Origin: Candidatus Iainarchaeum sp.
GTDB lineage: Archaea; Iainarchaeota; Iainarchaeia; Iainarchaeales; DTGL01
Length of the DNA stretch: 64,000 nucleotides
Assembly: GCA_026396995.1 (NCBI GenBank)
Contig: JAPLVS010000045.1
Location: 31,519 to 95,518, forward strand
Reading direction: 5' to 3'
A program made the translations under genes and the position numbers. Under the pieces are notes generated by a model. The model was not told the DNA's origin and made no database searches. It saw only the letters and a program-made list of their open reading frames with translations. This document shows, one piece after another, positions 5,269 to 61,685 of this stretch; the first letter of the stretch is position 1; every line of letters starts with the position of its first letter.

Positions 5269-6024
5269 TTATTCCCTTACTTCTATTCTTTTCACGTATT
5301 TTTCGAGGATTTTTGCCATTCCCTGGAGGACTTCAACAGGATATGGCTGTATTTCCCTGAACTTGTCATCAACCAATGGAACTTCGTTCACGAACTGCTG
5401 CAATGCGAAAAACCTTGCGCCTTTCACGAGCTCGCCTATTTTTTCTATGTCTTCAAGGCAGACAAGGGTGGGCACGACAGTTGTCCTGAACTCGTAATCC
5501 ACTTTCCCTTCTTTCAATAATTCAATGCTTTCCTTCACAGCGTCAAGGTCCACGTGCACGTTTGCTATGGCATCATACCTTTCCAGCGGCGCCTTGACAT
5601 CCATTGCGACGTAATCGACCATTTTTTCATTTATGAGCTCGCGCAGGAGCGCGGGATTCGTGCCATTCGTGTCAAGTTTCACTTTAAGGCCTAACTCTTT
5701 CACCTGCGTGATGAAGAATTTGAGGCCGCCGTGGACTGTCGGCTCGCCGCCTGAAATGCAAACGCCTTCCAGGTATTTTTTCCTGCCTTTCAAAAACTCG
5801 AGCGCTTCCTTTTCGCTTATTTCCCTTGTTTCTTTTTCCAGGACAAGCGAGGGGTTCTGGCAGAACCCGCACCTGAAATTGCATTTGTCGACAAAAAGTG
5901 TTGTGGCAATATGGGAAGGGTAATCTATAAGCGTTGTTTTCTGCAATCCCCTGAAAATCATTCCATGCACCAAAACCAGGCTGCCATCCGGCTTTCGCTT
6001 GGTCCGCAGTTCATTTGGCTTCAA
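5269..6024 (-). CDS. nrdG: Anaerobic ribonucleoside-triphosphate reductase activating protein (radical SAM)
   Basis: CNFRCGFC radical-SAM cysteine triad near N-terminus, GGEPT motif, located immediately downstream of nrdD; TTG start in table, true start may be the internal Met (MIFRGL). Confidence 0.85.
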   Translation of the reverse strand: MKPNELRTKRKPDGSLVLVHGMIFRGLQKTTLIDYPSHIATTLFVDKCNFRCGFCQNPSLVLEKETREISEKEALEFLKGRKKYLEGVCISGGEPTVHGGLKFFITQVKELGLKVKLDTNGTNPALLRELINEKMVDYVAMDVKAPLERYDAIANVHVDLDAVKESIELLKEGKVDYEFRTTVVPTLVCLEDIEKIGELVKGARFFALQQFVNEVPLVDDKFREIQPYPVEVLQGMAKILEKYVKRIEVRE

Positions 6025-6241
6025 CTGCCGGCCTTGCTTTTGCCTTTATTTTGCAGTCCTCTTCTTCTCTGTCAACTGCTTTTTTTTCTGAGAATGTCTT
6101 CCTGTCCTCAAATTCCTGCGCTTTCCCTATGTTCCATTGCTGGACAGGCCTGTAATAGCCTACAACCCTTGAATATACTTCGGTGTTTTTTCCGCATTTT
6201 GTCATTGTTTCACCTCTTTGGCCGGTTCTCCTGCCTGGCAT
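6011..6241 (-). CDS. Detached C-terminal glycyl-radical domain of class III RNR (NrdD C-terminal fragment)
   Basis: MTKCGKNTEVYSRVVGYYRPVQQWNIGKAQEFEDRK matches the NrdD C-terminal Zn-Cys / glycyl-radical loop (R-V-x-G-Y), but with V in place of the usual C; starts ~24 nt downstream of the nrdD body stop. Confidence 0.7.
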   Translation of the reverse strand: MPGRRTGQRGETMTKCGKNTEVYSRVVGYYRPVQQWNIGKAQEFEDRKTFSEKKAVDREEEDCKIKAKARPAVEAK

Positions 6242-6265
6242 TTCCCGGTGTTTTTCCGCAGCCGG

Positions 6266-8269
6266 TCATTGTTTCACTTCTGCGGCCTTGGTTTCCCTGG
6301 CTTCCTGCACTTCAACAGGGCATGCATAATGCTTTCCTGAAAGGTAGCCGTGCACAGGGCAGATGCTGAAGGTCGGCGTTATTGTAAAGTATGGGAGCTT
6401 GAAGTTATAAGCGATTGTTTTCACCAGTTTCTTGCAGGATTCACCTGAACTCATCCTTTCCCCCAAAAACCCGTGCAAGACTGTTCCCCCGGTGTACTTG
6501 CACTGCAGCTCATCCTGGTGTTCCAATGCGTCGAAAATGTCGTCTGTGAAATCCACAGGCAATTGCGTCGAATTCGTGTAATACGGCGCTTCCTTTGTGC
6601 CGGCCGTGATTATGTCCGGGTAATTGTCCCTGTCGATTCTTGCAAGCCTGTATGAAGTGCCTTCGGCCGGCGTTGCTTCAAGATTGTAAATGTTTGTTGT
6701 TTCCTCTTGGAAGTCCTTGAGCTTTCCGCGCATGAAATCCAGCACTTTCAATGAAAATTTCCTGCCTTCCTTGGACGCGATGTTTTCGCCGAGGAAATTC
6801 AGGCAGCATTCGTTCATGCCGTTAAGGCCTATGGTTGCAAAGTGGAAATCGAAAGTGCCGAGATATCTTTTTGACCATGGCAGGAGGCCGTCCTTCATGT
6901 TCTTTTCGACTTCTTTCCTCTTGATTTCGAGAGCTTCTTTTGCCAGATACATGAGATAATCGAGCCTTTCAAAGAAATCGCTTTCGTCCTTTGAGAGGTA
7001 GCCGAGCTGCGGCATGTTGATTGTCACAACTCCGATAGAGCCTGTCTTTTCCCCTGAACCGAATAGGCCGCCTGTCTTGGCTTTGAGTTCCCTCACGTCG
7101 AGCTGAAGCCTGCAGCACATGCTTCTCACGTCATGCGGCTTGAGCGATGAATTGATGAAGTTTTGGAAATAGGGCGTGCCGTATTTTGCAGTCATTTCGA
7201 ACAGGAGGTTTGAGTTCTCGCTGTTCCAATCGAAATCCCTTGTGATGTTGTATGTTGGTATGGGAAATGTGAAAATCCTTCCGTTCATGTCGCCTTTTGT
7301 CATTACTTCGATGAATGCCTTGTTTACCATGTCCATTTCATCCTGGAATTCGGAATAAGTTTCCTTTAGTTCCCCGCCGCCCCAGACCGCTGGCGTTCCC
7401 TTCATGTCTTCCGGCACAGTCCAGTCGAGCGTGATGTTTGTGAACGGAACCTGGTTGCCCCACCTTGAAGTCGCATTGATTGCGAAAACGAATTCCTGCA
7501 GGCTCTGCTTCACCCTTTCATAATCCAGGTTGTCTTTTGCTGCAAGCGGGGCAAGGTAAGTGTCGAAGGAAGAAAATGCCTGGGCTCCTGCCCATTCGTT
7601 CTGCATTGTGCCCATAAAGTTGACCATCTGGCCAAGTGCGGCGTTGAAGTGCTTTGCAGGCTTTGCTGCAATCCTTCCGGGAACGCCATTGAAGCCTTCC
7701 TCGAGAAGCTGCCTTAACGACCAGCCGGCGCAATATGCCGCAAATGTCCCAACCCCTAAATCGTGGAGATGGAATGCAGCGGTCTTGTGCATTTTCCCGA
7801 TTTCAGGGGGATAAATGTATTTGAGCGCATACTCTGAAACAATCGAATCTGAAATGTGCGCCTGCAGTCCGCTCAGGGAATAGGACGCGTTGCTGTTTTC
7901 CTTCACGCGCCATGATTTTTCCAAAACATATTCGTCTATTATGCTCGATGCCTTTTCCAAAAACGCCTTTGTGTCCCTTATCCTGTTGCGTTCGGCCCTG
8001 TAAAGTATGAAAGCCTTTGCTGTCTGGGCATGCCCGCTCTCGATCAGTTCCTTTTCCACTTCATCCTGGATTTGCTCGACTGTCGGAACTTTAGTGCCGA
8101 ATTTTTTCTTCAGCCTGTAAACAACGCGGTCGGAAAGCTTTCTTGCAGTCTCGCGGTCCTTGCCGCCAACCGCCTTTGCAGACTTAAAAATAGCTTCCTC
8201 GATTTTTTCCCGCTGGAAGGGCACGATGCGGCCGTCGCGCTTCTTGACCTTCTCTAAAAATCTCTTCAT
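6266..8269 (-). CDS. nrdD: Anaerobic ribonucleoside-triphosphate reductase (class III), catalytic body lacking its glycyl-radical tail
   Basis: N-terminal ATP-cone (MKRFLEKVKKRDGRIVPFQREKIEEAIFKSAKAV), long body with class III RNR-like conserved blocks, ends ...CPVHGYLSGKHYACPVEVQEARETKAAEVKQ just before the expected CxxC/RVCGY region. Confidence 0.9.
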   Translation of the reverse strand: MKRFLEKVKKRDGRIVPFQREKIEEAIFKSAKAVGGKDRETARKLSDRVVYRLKKKFGTKVPTVEQIQDEVEKELIESGHAQTAKAFILYRAERNRIRDTKAFLEKASSIIDEYVLEKSWRVKENSNASYSLSGLQAHISDSIVSEYALKYIYPPEIGKMHKTAAFHLHDLGVGTFAAYCAGWSLRQLLEEGFNGVPGRIAAKPAKHFNAALGQMVNFMGTMQNEWAGAQAFSSFDTYLAPLAAKDNLDYERVKQSLQEFVFAINATSRWGNQVPFTNITLDWTVPEDMKGTPAVWGGGELKETYSEFQDEMDMVNKAFIEVMTKGDMNGRIFTFPIPTYNITRDFDWNSENSNLLFEMTAKYGTPYFQNFINSSLKPHDVRSMCCRLQLDVRELKAKTGGLFGSGEKTGSIGVVTINMPQLGYLSKDESDFFERLDYLMYLAKEALEIKRKEVEKNMKDGLLPWSKRYLGTFDFHFATIGLNGMNECCLNFLGENIASKEGRKFSLKVLDFMRGKLKDFQEETTNIYNLEATPAEGTSYRLARIDRDNYPDIITAGTKEAPYYTNSTQLPVDFTDDIFDALEHQDELQCKYTGGTVLHGFLGERMSSGESCKKLVKTIAYNFKLPYFTITPTFSICPVHGYLSGKHYACPVEVQEARETKAAEVKQ

Positions 8270-45088: not shown

Positions 45089-48000
45089 TTGGGTGATTCT
45101 ATGAAAAAAACGCTTTCGTTACTGGTATTTTTGGCAATAATTTTGGTTCCCGCAACCGCAGCTGCAATGATGCAGACTGGAACGGCTGCAGCCGTACCTG
45201 TTGCAAACACAGGCGTGCAGGCCGAGGAAGGGAAAGGCGGAGTGGCCCCTGACTATTACAACCGCTATTTTTACATCAGCATAAGCGACAAGTTCATGCT
45301 CGGCGACAAGGTCGAAGCGCAGTTGTGCGGTTCAGGCCTTGCGACAGTTGAACTCTACAGGTTCGAGGACTTTTCAGCAATCTTCGACAGGTACAATTAC
45401 GGCATGAATGACACAAGCGATTTCATGAAAGGCGAAAAGCCCTTCAAAACCCTCACTGTACAGCTTGGAAACGGCCAGGACTGCCAGAAAGCGGATTTGC
45501 AGATAGAACAGGCAGGATTGTATTTCATAAAAGGCTATTCAACCGAATCGGACCAAAAGCCCACAGCGTTTTTTTCAGTCGAAGAAATCGCCTTCATGGC
45601 AAAAGAATCACCTGAAAAAATAGTATTCTATGCGGTTGATATCAAGACAGGAAAGCCGATTTCAGGCGCGGAAATAAAACTGCTCCAGCAGAAAACACCC
45701 ACGACACCGGAACAAAAGCCGGAAGCAACAGAAACAAGCCTTGGCTTCACCAATGATTTGGGATTATTCGAATGGCAGCAGGAAAAGCCTGCTTCAACAG
45801 ATTATTACCAGAGGCTCTTCATTGCAAAAAAAGACAATTCTTTCGCATATGTGCAAAGCTATTATTATGGCGGGGAAAGCGCCGAAAGGAAACAGGTTTA
45901 CCTTTTCACTGACCGCCCTATTTACAGGCCGAACCAGGAAGTGCACTTCAAGGGCATAGTCTGGGAAACAAGCACAGGCAAAAATGCCGCAGTTGCAAGC
46001 AAAACGCTTTCGGTTACGATAAGGGATTCGAAATGGAACGAGGTATTCAAGTCAGATTTTACAACCAATGAATTCGGCTCATTCGAAGGCTCTTTCAATC
46101 TCGCGGACGAGCCGCCTCTCGGGCAGTATTATATTGACGCAGCAATAAGCAAACCAGGGGAAGCCGAAGCCGGCTATTATTCAACCTCGGCTTCTTTCCA
46201 GGTGCAGGAATACCTGAAGCCTGAATTTGAAGTGACAGTGAACCCTTCCAAGGATGTTTTCATAGGCGGGGAAAAGGCGCGCGTCGAGATAAAGGCGGAA
46301 TACTTGTTCAAGGCGCCTGTGCAGGATGCGAAAGTGATGTACAGGGTTTATTCCTCATACTACCAGAGCCCGTGCTACGGCTACTGGAAATGCGTTTACT
46401 ACGACGAAGTGGCGGTTTCGCCTTACTCTTCTTACAGGTCTTACCCGTATTATGGCGGGCAAGAGCTTGTGACCGAAGGGGAAACAACCACTGACAGCGA
46501 GGGCAAGGCATTCCTAGAATTCGACACGAATGCAGACAGGGAAAAGCGCTACCAGATTGAAGCGACTGTTGTTGATGAAAGCAACCGCGAAGTGAAAGGC
46601 ACAGGCCAAATCACTGTTGCACCAGCAATGTTCAGGCTCACTGTAATGCCTGACAAGTGGTGGTACGCTGAAAACGAGGAGGTTGTGCTGAAAATCACAG
46701 CCGCAGACTTCGAGGGCGCAGCAGCGGAAACAAGCGCAACAGTGAAGGTTTTCTCGCTTAACTGGAACAGCACTTCAAGCGATTACGAACACACCCTGGT
46801 GAAAGAGGAAACAGCAAGCACAAGCGAAGGGAAAGCCGAAATAAGGCTCTCGCTCCCAACCGGAAATTATGCGGTGGAAGCATCAGCGCAGGATTCGAAA
46901 GGAAACACCGTGAAAGCCGAGAATTCATTCAGCGTCAGCTCTTATGAAAGCGAAAGCAAGGTGAAAGAAATAGAGGCAGCGCTTGACCGCGATTTCTATC
47001 TCCCAGGCGAACAGGCTGTGCTCACAATAACAATGCCTGAACCAGGATTCTACGCATTGATTTCGGTGGAAGGCAGGGGCATGTACCAGTACGAGGCGGT
47101 GTATTCTGCAGAAAACAGGCTTTCATACATCATTCCGGTTTCCACAGACTATGAGCCTAACGCCTTTGTTTCTGTGACAGGCGTGCAGGGCGGAAAGGTC
47201 TTCAACAAACAGCTTTCATTGAACGTGCCGCCGAAGGAAAAGAAAATAGATTTGAGCATCGAAACAGACGCGGAATATTACAGGCCAGGCGACAAGGCGC
47301 ACTATATAGTCAAAGCAACATCCGACGGCCAGCCTGTGGAAGCGGAATTCGCAGTAATGCTCGTTGATGAGGCAATCTACCAGCTCGCACAGGACAACAA
47401 GGAAGATATCTTCAAATTCTTCTTTGCGCCGGAATACAACAGAGTGAATACCCAGTGGAGCATAGGCGGGTATTATGGAGGCTATTACGGCATTAATGAA
47501 ATGGCTAAGGGCGGCGGAGGGGCCGTGCCAATGGCCACACCGACAACCCAAGCTGACAACGCAGCAAGGGACGGCGGAACAGCGTATGCCGCCGCAGAAA
47601 TAAGAAAGACCTTTTCTGACACGGCATTCTGGAAGGCATTCCTGAAAACGGATTCCACGGGAACTGCGGAATTCGATGTGGATTTGCCTGACAACCTCAC
47701 AACCTGGCGCGCTACAGTGATTGCGAATTCCGAAACAAAGGCAGGCGCACAGGAAGGCAAAATTGCAGTGACAAAAGATTTGCTTGCAAGGCTTATCCTT
47801 CCAAGGTTTGCTGTGAAAGGCGACGAATTTACTGTCACTGCAATCGTGCACAACAGTTTGCCTGAAATGAAAAACGTCCTGGTGAAAATCGAATCTGACA
47901 ACCTTGAATTCCCGGACGGGAACACAATAGAAATTACTGTTGCAAGCGGGAAAAGCGAAAAAGCTGAATTCAAGGCAATAGCGAAAAAATGCTGCTCTGC

Positions 48001-50989
48001 AACAATAAAACTGGAAGCGCTGACAGATGTCGAATCTGACGCGCTCGAAATAATAATGCCGGTATTCCCCTGGGGCATAAAGGAATTCGAGACGGTTTCA
48101 GGGGAAATAAGCGGTGCAACAAAAGAAATAACGATAGAGATTCCTGAGGAAACAGACAGGGAAGCCGACAAGCTGATAATAAAATTGAGCCCTACACTCG
48201 CGGCATCTGTTGTCGATTCATTGGATTACCTTACAGGCTACCCTTACGGCTGCGTCGAACAGACAATGTCAAAGTTTTTGCCTGACGTAGTTGTTTCGGA
48301 AACATTGGGCGAATTGAACCTTGACAACGAAAAAATTTCAAAGGATTTGCCTGACATGGTCGACAAGGGGCTGCAAAGGCTTTATTCTTTCCAGCACGCG
48401 GACGGCGGCTGGGGCTGGTGGGAAAACGATGAATCACAGCCTTTCATGACCGCTTACGCGATGTACGGCCTCACGCTGGCAAAAAAAGCAGGATTTAACG
48501 TAGAGGAAAGCGTGATTGAAAAAGGCCTCCAGGCAATGAGGGACAAATTCCATTCGGCAGGCACAAAAGGCTATGCCGACGAATACGATTCGCAGGCAGA
48601 AAAAGACTTGGAAGTGCAGGCATTCATGTCCTATGTGCTTTACCTCAACGGCGACAGCAAATTCGTGGGAGAGATTGAGGGCAAGGCAGGCGAAATGAGC
48701 GATTACGGCCTTGCGCTTCTCGCGCTCCAGGCAGAATCGAAAGAAGAGGCGCAGCCTTTCCTTGACTCGCTCGGCAAGAATGCAGCCTGCGACGCAACAT
48801 TCTGCTCCTGGCAGGGCAAAAGCTGGAGGCACTATTGGAGCGAAAGGGACATGGAGTCAACAGCGATGGTGCTGAAGGCGTTCGTGAAATGGCAGCCTGA
48901 AAGCGAACAGGCAAGGAAGGCAGTCGCATGGCTCATGAGCCAAAAGCAGTACAACCACTGGAATTCAACGCAGGACACTGCGACCGCAATAATGGCAATA
49001 ACAGATTACCTGAAATATTCAGGGGAATTGGACCCTGACTTCACAGCCAAAGTATACATAAACAACGAACTCAAAAAGGAATTCTCTGTCACAAAAGAAA
49101 ACCTGATGAGCACAGACGGAGACCTGACAATAGAGGTTCCGGAAAAGCAGAGCAACATCAGGATTGAAATGACAGGAAAAGGAAAGCTCTATTATTCGAT
49201 AACAAAAGAATACTTCGCGAAACAGGAAAAAATCGAAGCGAAAAGCAACGGCATCAAAATCACAAGGGAAGTGAAAAATGCCCTTGACATAGGCGAAGAG
49301 GCAACAGTGAAACTGACAATAGATGCGGACAAGGAATACGACTATGTCATTGTGGAGGACTTCCTGCCTGCCGGCGTTTCAATCGTTGATACCTGGCAGC
49401 GCAACACCTACGGGCACTATTACTGGGACTGGATGCCGTACTGGTATTCGAGGCTTGAAGCGCGCGACGAAAAGGCAGTGTTTTTCTTCGACAGCCTGCA
49501 GCAAGGCAAAACCGAACTCGAATACACGATAAGGGGCGAGGTTTCAGGCGCATTCAGGCACCTGCCTGCGCAGGCCTATTCCATGTACAATCCTGAAATC
49601 AACGGCCATTCTGAAGGAGGCAATTTCACTGTCACAACAGAAAAATCTTTCTCGCTGCCGAAACTCGAAGTGCACGACGACTACATATGGATTTACCCGA
49701 GACCGATTCCGATGGGTGCTGAAGTCAAGGCAACAGTCCTTGATGCTTCAGGCAAAGCCGTTGCATCGGCTTCAGGCCAGGCAAGCGAAGGAAAAATAGC
49801 GATTCCTTTGTCCGCAGGCCTCGCAAACGGAACCTATTCTGTCAGCGTTTCAACAGGGAGCGGAACTGCCACAAAGGACTTCCAGGTCGGCACTGTGGAA
49901 ATAAAGAAAGCAGAGCTTGCCTCGGCAACCTACACAAACGATCTCCTGGAAAGGACTGCACAGTCAGCATTCTCAAATCCCGCACAGGCAATGTGCACCT
50001 CGACAGGCGGCTCATGGAACGGCCGGTGCTCGTGCCCTTCAGGCTCGTACTGGCTTTTCGGCATAGGATGCCTTGCAAAAGGCGCCGGCATCGGGGGAAC
50101 GGCAGTTGAAAGCCTTTACCTTATTGCCTGCGCATTCCTATACTCCTTGCAGCCGATTTTCATCAAGGCGGCGCTCCCTTTTCTGACCCAATTCCAGATG
50201 TACGCTTTCCGCTGCGTTGGAACCCTGTTTGTGTTCCTTCCGCTCGCATTCCATTACAGGGAAAAGGTGCGCTCCGAGCTCAGGCAGTGGAAAAAATTCA
50301 TTGTTCCAGTAATAACAATCACCGGGGCAATGATGCTGTTTGTGGCAGGGATTTATCTTGCGGAAAACGCGACAGTCATGGCCCTGATAGCAAAATCCAA
50401 CCTTGTGTTCACGGCAATCCTGACAGTAATATTCTTTGCAGAGGAAAGGAGGGTGCTTTCCTCCAAAAGATTCATTGCCGGCGTCCTTTTGGCTTCAATC
50501 GGGGTAATCGGGGTCATCACGGCAGGGAAAGACTTGCCGCTCACATTCGGGATTGGCGCAATACTCATCCTGGTATCGCAGGTCTTCTGGAGCGCTTACT
50601 CGGTTTCACTGAAAGGATTGATAAAAAACAACAGCAGGCTTGAGGCATTGTGCGTGATTGTGCCGATGGCATTCCTTGTATCCGTGCCGTTTGCAGGCTA
50701 TGAAATCGCTGCCACAAACCCGCAAATAAACCCAATCTTTCTCCTGATACCGGTTGCAGCAGGAATGGCGCTCGGCCTTGCAAATATCTTTGAATTCAAG
50801 TCAATAGAAACCAAGGGCCTGATGATAACATACGCTTTCACGCTTATCAACCCGCTCCTCACAGGCTTAATCGCCTTCTTCATATTTCAGGAAACAATAT
50901 CAATCGCGCAGGCGGCCTTTGCTGCAGTCCTGATTGCAGGCGCACTGCTGATACTTAAATGCGAATGCATCGAAACCGAGGGCGACTGA
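45089..50989 (+). CDS. Alpha-2-macroglobulin-family thioester-containing protein fused to C-terminal EamA/DMT-type 10-TM transporter-like domain (1966 aa)
   Basis: Signal peptide MKKTLSLLVFLAIILVPATAAA; thioester motif LTGYPYGCVEQTMSKFLPD at nt ~48251..48262, followed by the W-rich block HADGGWGWWEND; beta-rich N-terminal 1000 aa consistent with MG domains; residues ~1680..1966 form ~10 TM helices in two EamA-like halves. Confidence 0.8.
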   Translation: MGDSMKKTLSLLVFLAIILVPATAAAMMQTGTAAAVPVANTGVQAEEGKGGVAPDYYNRYFYISISDKFMLGDKVEAQLCGSGLATVELYRFEDFSAIFDRYNYGMNDTSDFMKGEKPFKTLTVQLGNGQDCQKADLQIEQAGLYFIKGYSTESDQKPTAFFSVEEIAFMAKESPEKIVFYAVDIKTGKPISGAEIKLLQQKTPTTPEQKPEATETSLGFTNDLGLFEWQQEKPASTDYYQRLFIAKKDNSFAYVQSYYYGGESAERKQVYLFTDRPIYRPNQEVHFKGIVWETSTGKNAAVASKTLSVTIRDSKWNEVFKSDFTTNEFGSFEGSFNLADEPPLGQYYIDAAISKPGEAEAGYYSTSASFQVQEYLKPEFEVTVNPSKDVFIGGEKARVEIKAEYLFKAPVQDAKVMYRVYSSYYQSPCYGYWKCVYYDEVAVSPYSSYRSYPYYGGQELVTEGETTTDSEGKAFLEFDTNADREKRYQIEATVVDESNREVKGTGQITVAPAMFRLTVMPDKWWYAENEEVVLKITAADFEGAAAETSATVKVFSLNWNSTSSDYEHTLVKEETASTSEGKAEIRLSLPTGNYAVEASAQDSKGNTVKAENSFSVSSYESESKVKEIEAALDRDFYLPGEQAVLTITMPEPGFYALISVEGRGMYQYEAVYSAENRLSYIIPVSTDYEPNAFVSVTGVQGGKVFNKQLSLNVPPKEKKIDLSIETDAEYYRPGDKAHYIVKATSDGQPVEAEFAVMLVDEAIYQLAQDNKEDIFKFFFAPEYNRVNTQWSIGGYYGGYYGINEMAKGGGGAVPMATPTTQADNAARDGGTAYAAAEIRKTFSDTAFWKAFLKTDSTGTAEFDVDLPDNLTTWRATVIANSETKAGAQEGKIAVTKDLLARLILPRFAVKGDEFTVTAIVHNSLPEMKNVLVKIESDNLEFPDGNTIEITVASGKSEKAEFKAIAKKCCSATIKLEALTDVESDALEIIMPVFPWGIKEFETVSGEISGATKEITIEIPEETDREADKLIIKLSPTLAASVVDSLDYLTGYPYGCVEQTMSKFLPDVVVSETLGELNLDNEKISKDLPDMVDKGLQRLYSFQHADGGWGWWENDESQPFMTAYAMYGLTLAKKAGFNVEESVIEKGLQAMRDKFHSAGTKGYADEYDSQAEKDLEVQAFMSYVLYLNGDSKFVGEIEGKAGEMSDYGLALLALQAESKEEAQPFLDSLGKNAACDATFCSWQGKSWRHYWSERDMESTAMVLKAFVKWQPESEQARKAVAWLMSQKQYNHWNSTQDTATAIMAITDYLKYSGELDPDFTAKVYINNELKKEFSVTKENLMSTDGDLTIEVPEKQSNIRIEMTGKGKLYYSITKEYFAKQEKIEAKSNGIKITREVKNALDIGEEATVKLTIDADKEYDYVIVEDFLPAGVSIVDTWQRNTYGHYYWDWMPYWYSRLEARDEKAVFFFDSLQQGKTELEYTIRGEVSGAFRHLPAQAYSMYNPEINGHSEGGNFTVTTEKSFSLPKLEVHDDYIWIYPRPIPMGAEVKATVLDASGKAVASASGQASEGKIAIPLSAGLANGTYSVSVSTGSGTATKDFQVGTVEIKKAELASATYTNDLLERTAQSAFSNPAQAMCTSTGGSWNGRCSCPSGSYWLFGIGCLAKGAGIGGTAVESLYLIACAFLYSLQPIFIKAALPFLTQFQMYAFRCVGTLFVFLPLAFHYREKVRSELRQWKKFIVPVITITGAMMLFVAGIYLAENATVMALIAKSNLVFTAILTVIFFAEERRVLSSKRFIAGVLLASIGVIGVITAGKDLPLTFGIGAILILVSQVFWSAYSVSLKGLIKNNSRLEALCVIVPMAFLVSVPFAGYEIAATNPQINPIFLLIPVAAGMALGLANIFEFKSIETKGLMITYAFTLINPLLTGLIAFFIFQETISIAQAAFAAVLIAGALLILKCECIETEGD

Positions 50990-51058
50990 ACCCCCGGACC
51001 AAAAAGCATTTAAACAATAATGCCTATTTATTAATAATAATTATCACTAAGTGATTGG

Positions 51059-51445
51059 ATGAACAGGGCAAGGAACACAGTGCAATTGCAGAAAATCCGC
51101 GAATACCTCTCCGGGGTAAAATCGCACCCGAATGCGGAAACAGTGTTCAATGCCGTGAAGAAAGGAATCCCTTCGGTGACGCTTGCAACAGTTTACAGGA
51201 ACCTCAACAAGCTCGCGGACAGCGGGGAAATACTGCGCCTGGAAGTGAACGGCGAATATCGGTTCGATGCAGACAAAAGCATGCACCAGCACGCGGTTTG
51301 CACCGAATGCGGCGGCATCCTCGACTTTATGGATGTGAAACTAGGCGAAGAGATGCTGAAAAAATTCAAGTCAAAGGAATTCATGGCAGAAAAAGTGAAG
51401 ATTTTCTACGAGGGGAAATGCAGGAAATGCAGTTCAAAAAAATAG
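51059..51445 (+). CDS. Fur-family metalloregulator (PerR/Zur-like)
   Basis: wHTH N-terminus, HQHAVCTECGG and C-terminal CRKC metal sites. Confidence 0.8.
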   Translation: MNRARNTVQLQKIREYLSGVKSHPNAETVFNAVKKGIPSVTLATVYRNLNKLADSGEILRLEVNGEYRFDADKSMHQHAVCTECGGILDFMDVKLGEEMLKKFKSKEFMAEKVKIFYEGKCRKCSSKK

Positions 51446-51457
51446 GGGGTTGTTTTT

Positions 51458-51982
51458 ATGGAAGCGAAATTGTGGGTTTGTGAAATTTGCGGCGACCCGT
51501 ACATAGGCTATGCGCCGCCGACAGCTTGCCCTTTCTGCGGGGCGAGAGGCCGCTATATCAAGGAATTCAGGGACGCAAAGGTTGAATTTGATGTGAAACT
51601 CAACGAAAAGGACAGGGCGAATGCCGAGCACGCGCTCCAGGTCGAAGTCAGCAATTCCACGTTTTATTTCTGCGCTGCCGAAAAGACGCCTGATGCGGAA
51701 GCAAAAAAATTGTTCAAGGCATTGGGGAAAGTCGAGGCAGAGCACGCAGTGATCTGGAAAAAACTGCTCAAATTGAAGGAAATCCCGAAAGGCACAGATG
51801 AATGCGCCGAAAATTACATGAAAAATTTGCAGGACTCACACGCAAGGGAAACCCGCGCAATAGAATTTTACCGCAGCGCGGCAAAGGAAGCCGCGAATGC
51901 GCGCGTTAAGCAGGTTTTCGAGGCTTTGGTCGAAGTGGAAACAGACCACCTGCAGCTGTCTGAAGCGAGGGGAGCCAAATGA
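51458..51982 (+). CDS. Rubrerythrin with N-terminal rubredoxin-like domain (reverse rubrerythrin)
   Basis: N-terminal CEICG...CPFCG rubredoxin-like Cys4, then ferritin-like ExxH diiron helices (AEHALQ, EAEHAVI, ETDHLQ). Confidence 0.85.
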   Translation: MEAKLWVCEICGDPYIGYAPPTACPFCGARGRYIKEFRDAKVEFDVKLNEKDRANAEHALQVEVSNSTFYFCAAEKTPDAEAKKLFKALGKVEAEHAVIWKKLLKLKEIPKGTDECAENYMKNLQDSHARETRAIEFYRSAAKEAANARVKQVFEALVEVETDHLQLSEARGAK

Positions 51983-52128
51983 AGGGAAAATGCGAAAAGA
52001 AGACTGAAGTGTATTCCAGGGTATGCGGCTATTTCAGGCCGGTGGATAATTGGAATACAGGCAAGAGGCAGGAATTCAGCGACAGGAAGGAATATAATGA
52101 AGAAAAGGCGCTGAAAAAAGCGAGTTAA
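51979..52128 (+). CDS. Stand-alone 49-aa glycyl-radical peptide homologous to NrdD C-terminus (putative spare glycyl radical cofactor)
   Basis: MKGKCEKKTEVYSRVCGYFRPVDNWNTGKRQEFSDRKEYNEEKALKKAS; canonical RVCGY glycyl-radical loop; ATGA overlap with rubrerythrin stop and GGGGGG RBS before next gene; not in ORF table because <60 aa. Confidence 0.6.
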   Translation: MKGKCEKKTEVYSRVCGYFRPVDNWNTGKRQEFSDRKEYNEEKALKKAS

Positions 52129-52134
52129 GGGGGG

Positions 52135-52665
52135 ATGCCAATGACCGGAAAAAACAAAAACTGCGGAATTTCAATCACCAAGGACGGCCCTTATCTTGTT
52201 TCGGGAAGCCCGCCAATGAAAAAAGAAATCATTACAATTGGAAAGGAAGGCGAACCTGAAACATGGAAGAGCGGTGAAAAATTCGAAAAAAAGGAATCCT
52301 GCGCGCTCTGCAGGTGCGGCTCCTCTAACAGCAAGCCTTACTGCGACGGCACCCATGCCGGCGTGGGATTTGACGGCACTGAAATCGCAAGCAGAAAAAA
52401 ATATCTCGAACACGCCTCAAAATTTTCAGGCCCAGGCCTTGGTCTTACTGATGTGCAGGAATTGTGCGCTGCTGCAAGGTTCTGCCACCGCGGGGGCGGA
52501 ACATGGAAATTGGTTGAAAGGTCAGCGGACCCTAAACTGAAAAAGATTGCTGTTGAATCGGCCTGCAATTGCCCTTCGGGAAGGCTTGTGGCTTGGGACA
52601 AGAAAACAGGGAAGCCTATAGAGCATAAGTTTGAGCCTTCCATTGGGATGGCGACAAAAGCCTGA
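52135..52665 (+). CDS. CDGSH iron-sulfur domain protein
   Basis: CALCRCGSSNSKPYCDGTHAGV matches CxC-x-S-x3-P-x-CDG-(S/T)-H; second degenerate copy CNCPSGRL. Confidence 0.7.
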   Translation: MPMTGKNKNCGISITKDGPYLVSGSPPMKKEIITIGKEGEPETWKSGEKFEKKESCALCRCGSSNSKPYCDGTHAGVGFDGTEIASRKKYLEHASKFSGPGLGLTDVQELCAAARFCHRGGGTWKLVERSADPKLKKIAVESACNCPSGRLVAWDKKTGKPIEHKFEPSIGMATKA

Positions 52666-52749: not shown

Positions 52750-53085
52750 GTGGGAAAAATGGGCGGAAAGAATGCTCCGGGAACTAGGACAAACAAGAAA
52801 TACAATTCGCCTCAAAAAAAACTATTTTTGAGGAAGGGGAGGCCCAAGCGACCTGTACAGGTTTATGCCCCTCCAAAAAGGCGCAAGATTAAAATTGCGG
52901 GCGGAGCCATAATCAGGGTCGGCCCTGGTGAACTCGAAAGGCAGAGAATGGCAGAAAAAAGGGTAACCTCCAAGTATGAGCCAATAGTATCCCCCTATAG
53001 GCTCACGTCAGCGCAAATCAGCAGGGCAAATCAACTTGTTGCTGGTCATGCCAAGGCCGTACCGAGACCTAGACGGCCAAGGTAA
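52750..53085 (+). CDS. Small very basic hypothetical protein
   Basis: ORF; Lys/Arg/Pro-rich; ends adjacent to tRNA-Ser. Confidence 0.3.
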   Translation: MGKMGGKNAPGTRTNKKYNSPQKKLFLRKGRPKRPVQVYAPPKRRKIKIAGGAIIRVGPGELERQRMAEKRVTSKYEPIVSPYRLTSAQISRANQLVAGHAKAVPRPRRPR

Positions 53086-53095
53086 AAATAGGAAG

Positions 53096-53273
53096 CGCCG
53101 AGAGAGGGATTCGAACCCCCGCATGCTTGCGCATACCAGCTCTTTGGCCAGCTGCAGAGAAGTGACTGATATATTAATCAAACTTTTTCTTTTCTTTCCG
53201 CAACTCCCTGTTCAAGCTTGGCTTGAACAGGAGGATTCCAGACTGGCGCGTTAGACCGCTCCGCCATCTCGGC
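53096..53273 (-). tRNA. tRNA-Ser (anticodon GGA) interrupted by ~94-nt intron
   Basis: 5' exon GCCGAGATGGCGGAGCGGTCTAACGCGCCAGTCTGGAA (~53236..53273), 3' exon AGCTGG-TATGCGCAAGCATGC-GGGGGTTCGAATCCCTC-TCTCGGC-G (~53096..53141); acceptor stems fully complementary; Ser-type long D loop and variable hairpin; intron contains perfect 11-bp-stem hairpin cctgttcaagc-caa-gcttgaacagg. Confidence 0.7.
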
Positions 53274-61512: not shown

Positions 61513-61685
61513 CGCCGAGAGAGGGATTTGAACCCCCGCATGCCAGAGGCATACCAGCTTACTCGCCGCAATATTTTGCTTTTGCCATGAGGTCTTTTCT
61601 TTTTGGCAAACCTAGGCTTTTTCTTTTATAAAAAGAAAAAGGCTGGGCTCAAGGCTGGCGCGTTAGACCACTCCGCCATCTCGGC
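61513..61685 (-). tRNA. tRNA-Ser (anticodon TGA) interrupted by ~89-nt intron
   Basis: 5' exon GCCGAGATGGCGGAGTGGTCTAACGCGCCAGCCTTGAG (~61648..61685), 3' exon A-GCTGG-TATGCCTCTGGCATGC-GGGGGTTCAAATCCCTC-TCTCGGC-G (~61513..61558); anticodon stem CCAGC/GCTGG; intron carries the aaagaaaag palindromic element. Confidence 0.7.

Follow-up and report, generated by a model that had tools for sequence, protein, structure and literature searches.

A stand-alone NrdD glycyl-radical tail gene in a putative archaeal oxidative-stress operon, and its possible role as a spare part for a split anaerobic ribonucleotide reductase

We found that a conserved 49-residue gene of a Candidatus Iainarchaeum archaeon encodes only the radical-bearing tail of NrdD, the oxygen-sensitive anaerobic (class III) ribonucleotide reductase (RNR), and that it lies in what we infer to be an oxidative-stress operon. 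The same archaeon already encodes NrdD in two pieces, so the small gene is best read as a second copy of a detachable subunit and probably as a replacement part, although this function is inferred from sequence and context alone. The gene lies in a 64,000-nucleotide stretch of contig JAPLVS010000045.1 (assembly GCA_026396995.1), which we call the window. An earlier sequence-only reading had proposed a free-standing NrdD-type glycyl-radical peptide at this site, coupled to rubrerythrin and analogous to the GrcA/YfiD protein that repairs pyruvate formate-lyase. What it observed in the sequence is confirmed by our analysis; its interpretation is only partly supported, because NrdD in this organism is not a one-piece enzyme. 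The relevant features of the window are:

51009..51051 (+), putative promoter/operator, with a TTTAAA box (51009-51014) followed by a Fur-box-like palindrome (about 51027-51051)
51059..51445 (+), Fur-family regulator, PerR-like, first gene of the operon
51458..51982 (+), 174-aa rubrerythrin-like di-iron protein with an N-terminal rubredoxin-like domain ('reverse' rubrerythrin layout)
51979..52128 (+), 49-aa free-standing NrdD-type glycyl-radical tail
52135..52665 (+), CDGSH iron-sulfur protein with a Fer4_19 domain, last gene of the operon; the start is more likely 52141
5269..6024 (-), nrdG, the radical-SAM activase of class III RNR
6011..6205 (-), cognate tail gene of the split nrdD operon (64 aa)
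6187..6287 (no strand assigned), 37-nt direct repeat, spaced 64 nt apart (81% identity), duplicating the nrdD-large stop / tail start junction
6266..8269 (-), nrdD-large, ATP-cone plus catalytic barrel, without the glycyl-radical tail

The 49-aa ORF begins with ATG, ends with TAA and encodes MKGKCEKKTEVYSRVCGYFRPVDNWNTGKRQEFSDRKEYNEEKALKKAS. Its ATG overlaps the TGA stop codon of the rubrerythrin-like gene as ATGA, and a GGGGGG run separates it from the CDGSH/Fer4_19 gene. Its similarity to NrdD is far beyond chance: it matches Pfam NRDD (PF13597) with 43.8 bits against a gathering score of 26.2 (E = 1.9e-11), aligned to model positions 526-562 of 562, which are the last 37 positions, and it matches only the C-terminal ends of five NCBIfam NrdD models at E <= 0.013 (best E = 1.3e-10). 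Identity to the ORF at 6011..6241 is 28/42 or 67% (E = 9e-21), where the sequence-only reading had given about 70%, and the contrast that it drew between RVCGY here and RVVGY in the other ORF is correct. Cys5 corresponds to the last zinc-ribbon cysteine and Gly17, in RVCGY, to the radical glycine. The radical glycine motif RVxGY followed by RPV..WN.GK is present (RVCGYFRPVDNWNTGK), and all 20 columns that are invariant among seven free tails are kept. The peptide is a subunit-sized fragment and not the enzyme: it has neither the ten-stranded barrel with its cysteine finger loop nor more than the last of the four zinc ligands, and full-length NCBIfam NrdD models score 40 bits against cut-offs of 326-585. 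Two points of the earlier reading need correction. The ORF is not unannotated in this genome, because NCBI lists it as 'hypothetical protein NT067_03880 [Candidatus Diapherotrites archaeon]', although the homologous ORF is uncalled in four related NCBI assemblies. And the 'detached tail' at 6011..6241 is not an oddity but the normal small gene of a split nrdD operon.

To assess whether the ORF is a real gene, we searched for homologs of the rubrerythrin-like protein (which are called ferritin or rubrerythrin) and read the DNA downstream of the closest ones. The same small ORF, with the same ATGA overlap, follows the rubrerythrin-like gene and a Fur/PerR-like gene in six independent Diapherotrites assemblies: the window and the loci that we label L001, L255, L256/L257, L258 and L259. 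Across these loci the rubrerythrin proteins are 71-100% identical and the Fur-family proteins 54-81% identical, whereas the downstream genes differ, being CDGSH in some, 1-Cys peroxiredoxin followed by a MopE-like protein and CDGSH in others, and an unknown protein in another. In L001 the CDGSH gene call starts 12 nt after the stop codon of the tail. Between the window and L001 there are 11 synonymous and 4 non-synonymous codon changes in the small ORF, and none of the non-synonymous changes falls in residues 4-33. By the Nei-Gojobori method, dN/dS over the 36-codon core is 0.02-0.14 wherever dS is not saturated, and dN never exceeds 0.19 when dS is saturated. The coupling to rubrerythrin was found only in Diapherotrites, and it is absent from one related locus (L260) and from a Woesearchaeota locus (L261). 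A scan of metagenomes with the peptide, limited in its number of hits, found no further rubrerythrin-coupled copies; those described above were found through the rubrerythrin homologs. Lack of conservation in related genomes and an origin as a pseudogenised piece of a second nrdD had been named beforehand as results that would overturn the proposal, and neither was seen: there is no NrdD-like sequence upstream in any frame, and the ORF is under purifying selection.

The neighborhood points to oxidative stress, which is a reasonable inference rather than a demonstrated fact. The first gene matches Pfam FUR (E = 7e-23), and its best NCBIfam models are PerR (82.7 and 76.6 bits) ahead of Fur (54.7 bits), but all of these scores are below the curated cut-offs. 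The rubrerythrin-like protein matches Pfam Rubrerythrin with 38.1 bits and RUBY_RBDX at residues 6-30, and the last gene matches zf-CDGSH (E = 1.6e-15) and Fer4_19 (E = 5e-8). Neighbors in the various loci are 1-Cys peroxiredoxin, CDGSH proteins and MsrA/MsrB. Upstream of the Fur-family gene all six loci share the TTTAAA box followed by the Fur-box-like palindrome, which in L001 reads ATTGATAGCAATTATCAAT and whose operator function is inferred. Within the window this motif occurs only at 51027..51051, where it matches on both strands, and we found none elsewhere, for example at nrdD. In L255 and L259 an EamA gene alone precedes the Fur-family gene, while in the window the preceding ORF (45089..50989, +; 1966 aa) joins a bacterial-type alpha-2-macroglobulin (MG2, bait region, TED and bMG10 domains) to a C-terminal EamA transporter domain. 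Downstream of the operon, at 52750..53085 (+), is a 111-aa lysine/arginine-rich ORF with no Pfam match. Two tRNA genes of 173-178 nt, presumably with long introns, at 53096..53273 (-) and 61513..61685 (-), are found by Rfam but missed by ARAGORN.

The resident NrdD is natively split into nrdD-large, a tail gene and nrdG. NrdD-large matches NCBIfam NF006126 with 1047 bits over positions 3-649 of 684 and ends 16 residues after the third zinc ligand (..YACP VEVQEARETKAAEVKQ, then stop). The next ORF carries KCGKNTEVYSRVVGYYRPV..., and nrdG follows (NCBIfam TIGR02495, NrdG2, 208 bits against a cut-off of 131). A virtual fusion of ACP to KCG restores a gap-free alignment to 'CPVCGK' of Thermotoga maritima NrdD, so the break lies inside the second, last zinc knuckle, between CP and xC: the large protein keeps three ligands and the tail brings the fourth cysteine together with the RVxGY loop. 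In the window the tail ORF is in frame with nrdD-large behind a single TGA, and the direct repeat duplicates the 'stop/ATGA start' junction and leaves a 19-codon decoy ORF (MTGCGKTPGNARQENRPKR). The tail most probably starts at Met13 of the 6011..6241 ORF (position 6205; MTKCGKNTEVYSRVVGYYRPV...), 5 nt downstream of a GAGGTGA Shine-Dalgarno sequence. We reject recoding or an intron at this junction, and do not think that the TGA is an error, because the Shine-Dalgarno sequence precedes Met13 of the tail, because a 96%-identical homolog (P0304) ends at the same ...AAEVKQ, because in about 70 other split operons examined NrdD-large always stops 0-16 residues after the same CP, using all three stop codons and all relative frames, and because Rfam finds no intron or other RNA there. 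The 49-aa copy does not lie between nrdD-large and nrdG, a position held by the cognate copy, but about 44 kb away.

The split is widespread, with about 78 other loci from bacteria and DPANN archaea lacking a fused tail in the same way. We classified the 80 best loci from each of three sources. Among species-representative genomes, 61 are fused, 17 are split operons, 1 is an orphan tail and 1 has a tail and nrdG only. Among metagenome contigs the corresponding numbers are 0, 60, 19 and 1, and among IMG/VR viral contigs they are 9, 0, 70 and 1. The split operons have the order nrdD-large / tail / nrdG, and in the genome set they come from Desulfuromonadales relatives, Lentisphaeria/Victivallaceae, Verrucomicrobia, Thermoguttaceae, Micrarchaeota and Ca. 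Iainarchaeum. Of the 120 closest homologs of the window's NrdD-large (65-96% identity), 102 lack the tail and the other 18 are fused through a short linker such as 'CPVEVGGGEKMAKCNK'. NrdD-large identities do not separate split from fused forms, and so do not distinguish a single from a multiple origin of the split. Free tails form a large family of at least 150 clusters. A profile built from seven tails found 5,053 cluster representatives at E <= 1e-3, of which the best 150 are almost all stand-alone proteins of 48-234 aa beginning M-x-KC; public databases name them, if at all, 'anaerobic ribonucleoside-triphosphate reductase' or 'hypothetical'. The genome that gave L259 also carries a split nrdD operon (L072), so two of the two genomes that could be checked have both copies. 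Desulfuromonadales-type NrdD-large proteins (L013, L017, L021, L023 and many metagenome loci) end in a histidine-rich 'CPHHHEGxAA', and their tails use RVCGFF rather than GY; the histidines might substitute for a zinc ligand.

Extra and orphan tails occur elsewhere. In a Lentisphaeria chromosome (CP091727; L028, 5990..6546) three identical tail genes lie in tandem between nrdD-large and nrdG (206-nt period, 98% matches), and related human-gut contigs (L224, L226, L251) have one or two, so copy number varies between strains. One fused NrdD of 752 aa (P0327), seen on a single contig, has two complete tails in tandem in the same polypeptide (...KKCEKNTEIFSRVVGYY...ESCGKDSEVFSRVVGYY...). In the 70 viral loci with orphan tails (among L093-L172) there is no nrdD-large or nrdG within 8 kb, though for 16 of them the contig supplies less flank than that. 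Their neighbors include AAA_24, DUF669, RusA, PDDEXK and DUF3799 genes, a replication/recombination module, and some orphan tails (among L006-L012) are in Mu-like phages. Viral tails come in the same sequence flavors as the tails of split-NrdD hosts, and one (L156) is identical to the window's cognate tail at 34 of 36 core residues. In a collection of cultured phages we found only seven hits, of which five look like full-length NrdD by annotation alone, one (H1) proved to be a full-length NrdD, and one, in the archaeal virus ANMV-1 (KP703175; L253, 2677..3111), is a 144-aa protein consisting of an NrdD C-terminal domain with a complete zinc ribbon (CHDCG...CPKCF) plus the glycine loop, with no nrdD barrel gene nearby; this is a larger, GrcA-like autonomous version. 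A recurrent fusion (P0016, P0032, P0040, P0057, P0084, P0086, P0089, P0102; L119, L247) joins an NrdD tail (residues 1-40), a hydrophobic helix with a lipobox-like L-x-G-C, and a domain of roughly 110 aa with no Pfam match, and P0088 instead fuses a tail to a 3D domain. We have no explanation for a membrane-anchored radical tail.

The reading that we favor, with only moderate confidence, is that the 49-aa ORF encodes a second, differently regulated copy of the exchangeable radical-bearing subunit of a two-piece class III RNR. The sequences themselves establish that NrdD is split in this organism, that the extra tail is a conserved and selected gene that keeps every residue invariant in free tails, and that it is translationally coupled to the gene for a rubrerythrin-like peroxide/oxygen detoxifier. 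Oxygen destroys glycyl radicals by cutting the backbone at the glycine. The rest is inference, including expression of the peptide, its binding to NrdD-large, its activation by NrdG and the repair itself. In this view, damage in a split enzyme would be confined to the roughly 5-kDa tail, oxidative stress would derepress the operon so that new tails are made together with rubrerythrin, and a new tail would dock on NrdD-large, complete the zinc site through Cys5 and be activated by NrdG, restoring dNTP synthesis once anoxia returns. Timing matters, because a tail made while oxygen is present cannot hold a radical, and the link to stress rests on gene neighborhood. Docking is not supported structurally: an AlphaFold2 model of a 90%-identical fused relative (P0305, 43-row alignment) had a mean pLDDT of 75.8, but the glycine loop (670-696) and the cysteine finger loop (386-406) were below 50, so that the model is uninformative on this point. 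The tandem tails, the viral orphans and the two-tailed NrdD are consistent with a demand for extra tails elsewhere.

Other readings are less likely but are not excluded. The peptide could be an ordinary paralog or dosage copy, if the enzyme simply needs more tail than large subunit and the position behind rubrerythrin has no link to oxygen damage. Tail copy number does vary in Lentisphaeria without any stress genes nearby, and the peptide keeps all invariant residues, but we consider this unlikely because the exact ATGA coupling is kept in six assemblies while the downstream genes change, and the neighbors are consistently oxidative-stress genes. It is less likely still that the peptide is a protective or regulatory decoy, which when unactivated would occupy NrdD-large or titrate NrdG and so park the reductase in a radical-free, oxygen-insensitive state. 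This would suit co-expression with defense genes at a time when a glycyl radical could not survive, but the glycine and the whole activase-recognition loop are under the same constraint as in cognate tails, which a pure blocker would not need, and the idea overlaps with the spare-part reading once anoxia returns.

We regard as very unlikely the possibility that the ORF is a functionless remnant of a mobile or viral tail gene that landed behind rubrerythrin. Orphan tails are common on viral contigs, and viral tails (L094, L096) are among the most similar sequences, with 29-30 identical residues of 36 compared to 25 of 36 for the window's own cognate tail. However, purifying selection and positional conservation hold across the six diverged loci, and no phage genes are nearby. 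Identity matrices could not tell whether the extra copy came from the resident tail or from a virus, because the sequence is too short. A remote possibility is that the peptide works with the di-iron protein itself, for example through an oxidant-dependent route that makes or protects its radical, which would be a bridge between class III and ferritin-dependent class I reductases. Only the tight, conserved translational coupling to a ferritin-fold protein speaks for this; no precedent exists, glycyl radicals are oxygen-labile, nrdG is present in the genome, and close rubrerythrin homologs occur without the peptide.

The closest system in proposed function is GrcA/YfiD of Escherichia coli, a small free-standing protein that carries only the glycyl-radical loop of a large enzyme, is thought to replace its oxygen-cleaved part, and also has phage-borne versions (PMC13450708). 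Phage T4 has a homolog, Y06I. Our peptide is likewise an independent ORF consisting of the radical loop of a larger enzyme, but it is not a member of that family: GrcA is homologous to the C-terminus of pyruvate formate-lyase (Pfam Gly_radical), whereas a Pfam scan of our peptide at E <= 1 returns NRDD only. GrcA has 127 aa and rescues a normally one-piece enzyme, while the peptide has 49 aa, brings one zinc ligand and belongs to an enzyme that is already two-piece, so the analogy to repair of a covalently intact enzyme, as the sequence-only reading framed it, is not the right one. One-piece NrdD (phage T4; T. maritima, PDB 4COI/4U3E) has the same C-terminal motif, CxxC...EVYSRVxGYxRPV..WN.GK, and the same activase, but there the tail is not a separate gene product. 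In the split class II reductase NrdJa/NrdJb (Pseudomonas aeruginosa, Thermus phage) a C-terminal functional module including a zinc finger is also a separate polypeptide (PMC9669993), but that enzyme uses AdoCbl, the separate piece carries the reducing cysteines and not the radical, and no extra stress-regulated copy is known. Phage nrdD genes in pieces (T4 intron I-TevII, inteins, phiAS4 fragments; PMC3653736) are interrupted by introns, inteins or decay at other positions, whereas here the break point is fixed, without an intervening element, and the arrangement is stable across phyla.

The claim of the sequence-only reading that such a device is undescribed agrees with a June 2026 review, which says that spare-part proteins are known only for formate lyases and that their existence for other glycyl radical enzymes is undetermined (PMC13450708). 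Surveys of RNR architecture describe split class II but no split class III enzymes (PMC9669993), and our searches for a split NrdD or an NrdD spare part found none in a literature collection that omits most subscription journals.

Glycyl radical enzymes are killed irreversibly by oxygen, and GrcA/YfiD, for pyruvate formate-lyase, is the only known remedy. A broader hypothesis, which the evidence allows but which we hold only tentatively, is that in many anaerobes class III RNR is a two-component enzyme whose radical sits on a disposable, exchangeable 'cartridge' of roughly 5 kDa. Cells would keep extra cartridges, either in a peroxide-regulated copy behind rubrerythrin or in tandem arrays, and phages would carry them to re-arm the host's NrdD-large after oxygen damage or to raise dNTP supply. 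This would be the first spare-part system for a glycyl radical enzyme other than pyruvate formate-lyase, and the locus and the large family behind it make the question directly testable for the enzyme that supplies DNA precursors in anaerobes. It would also revise the textbook picture of NrdD as a single polypeptide, could explain how small-genome archaea survive oxygen pulses, and would add a new kind of phage auxiliary gene.
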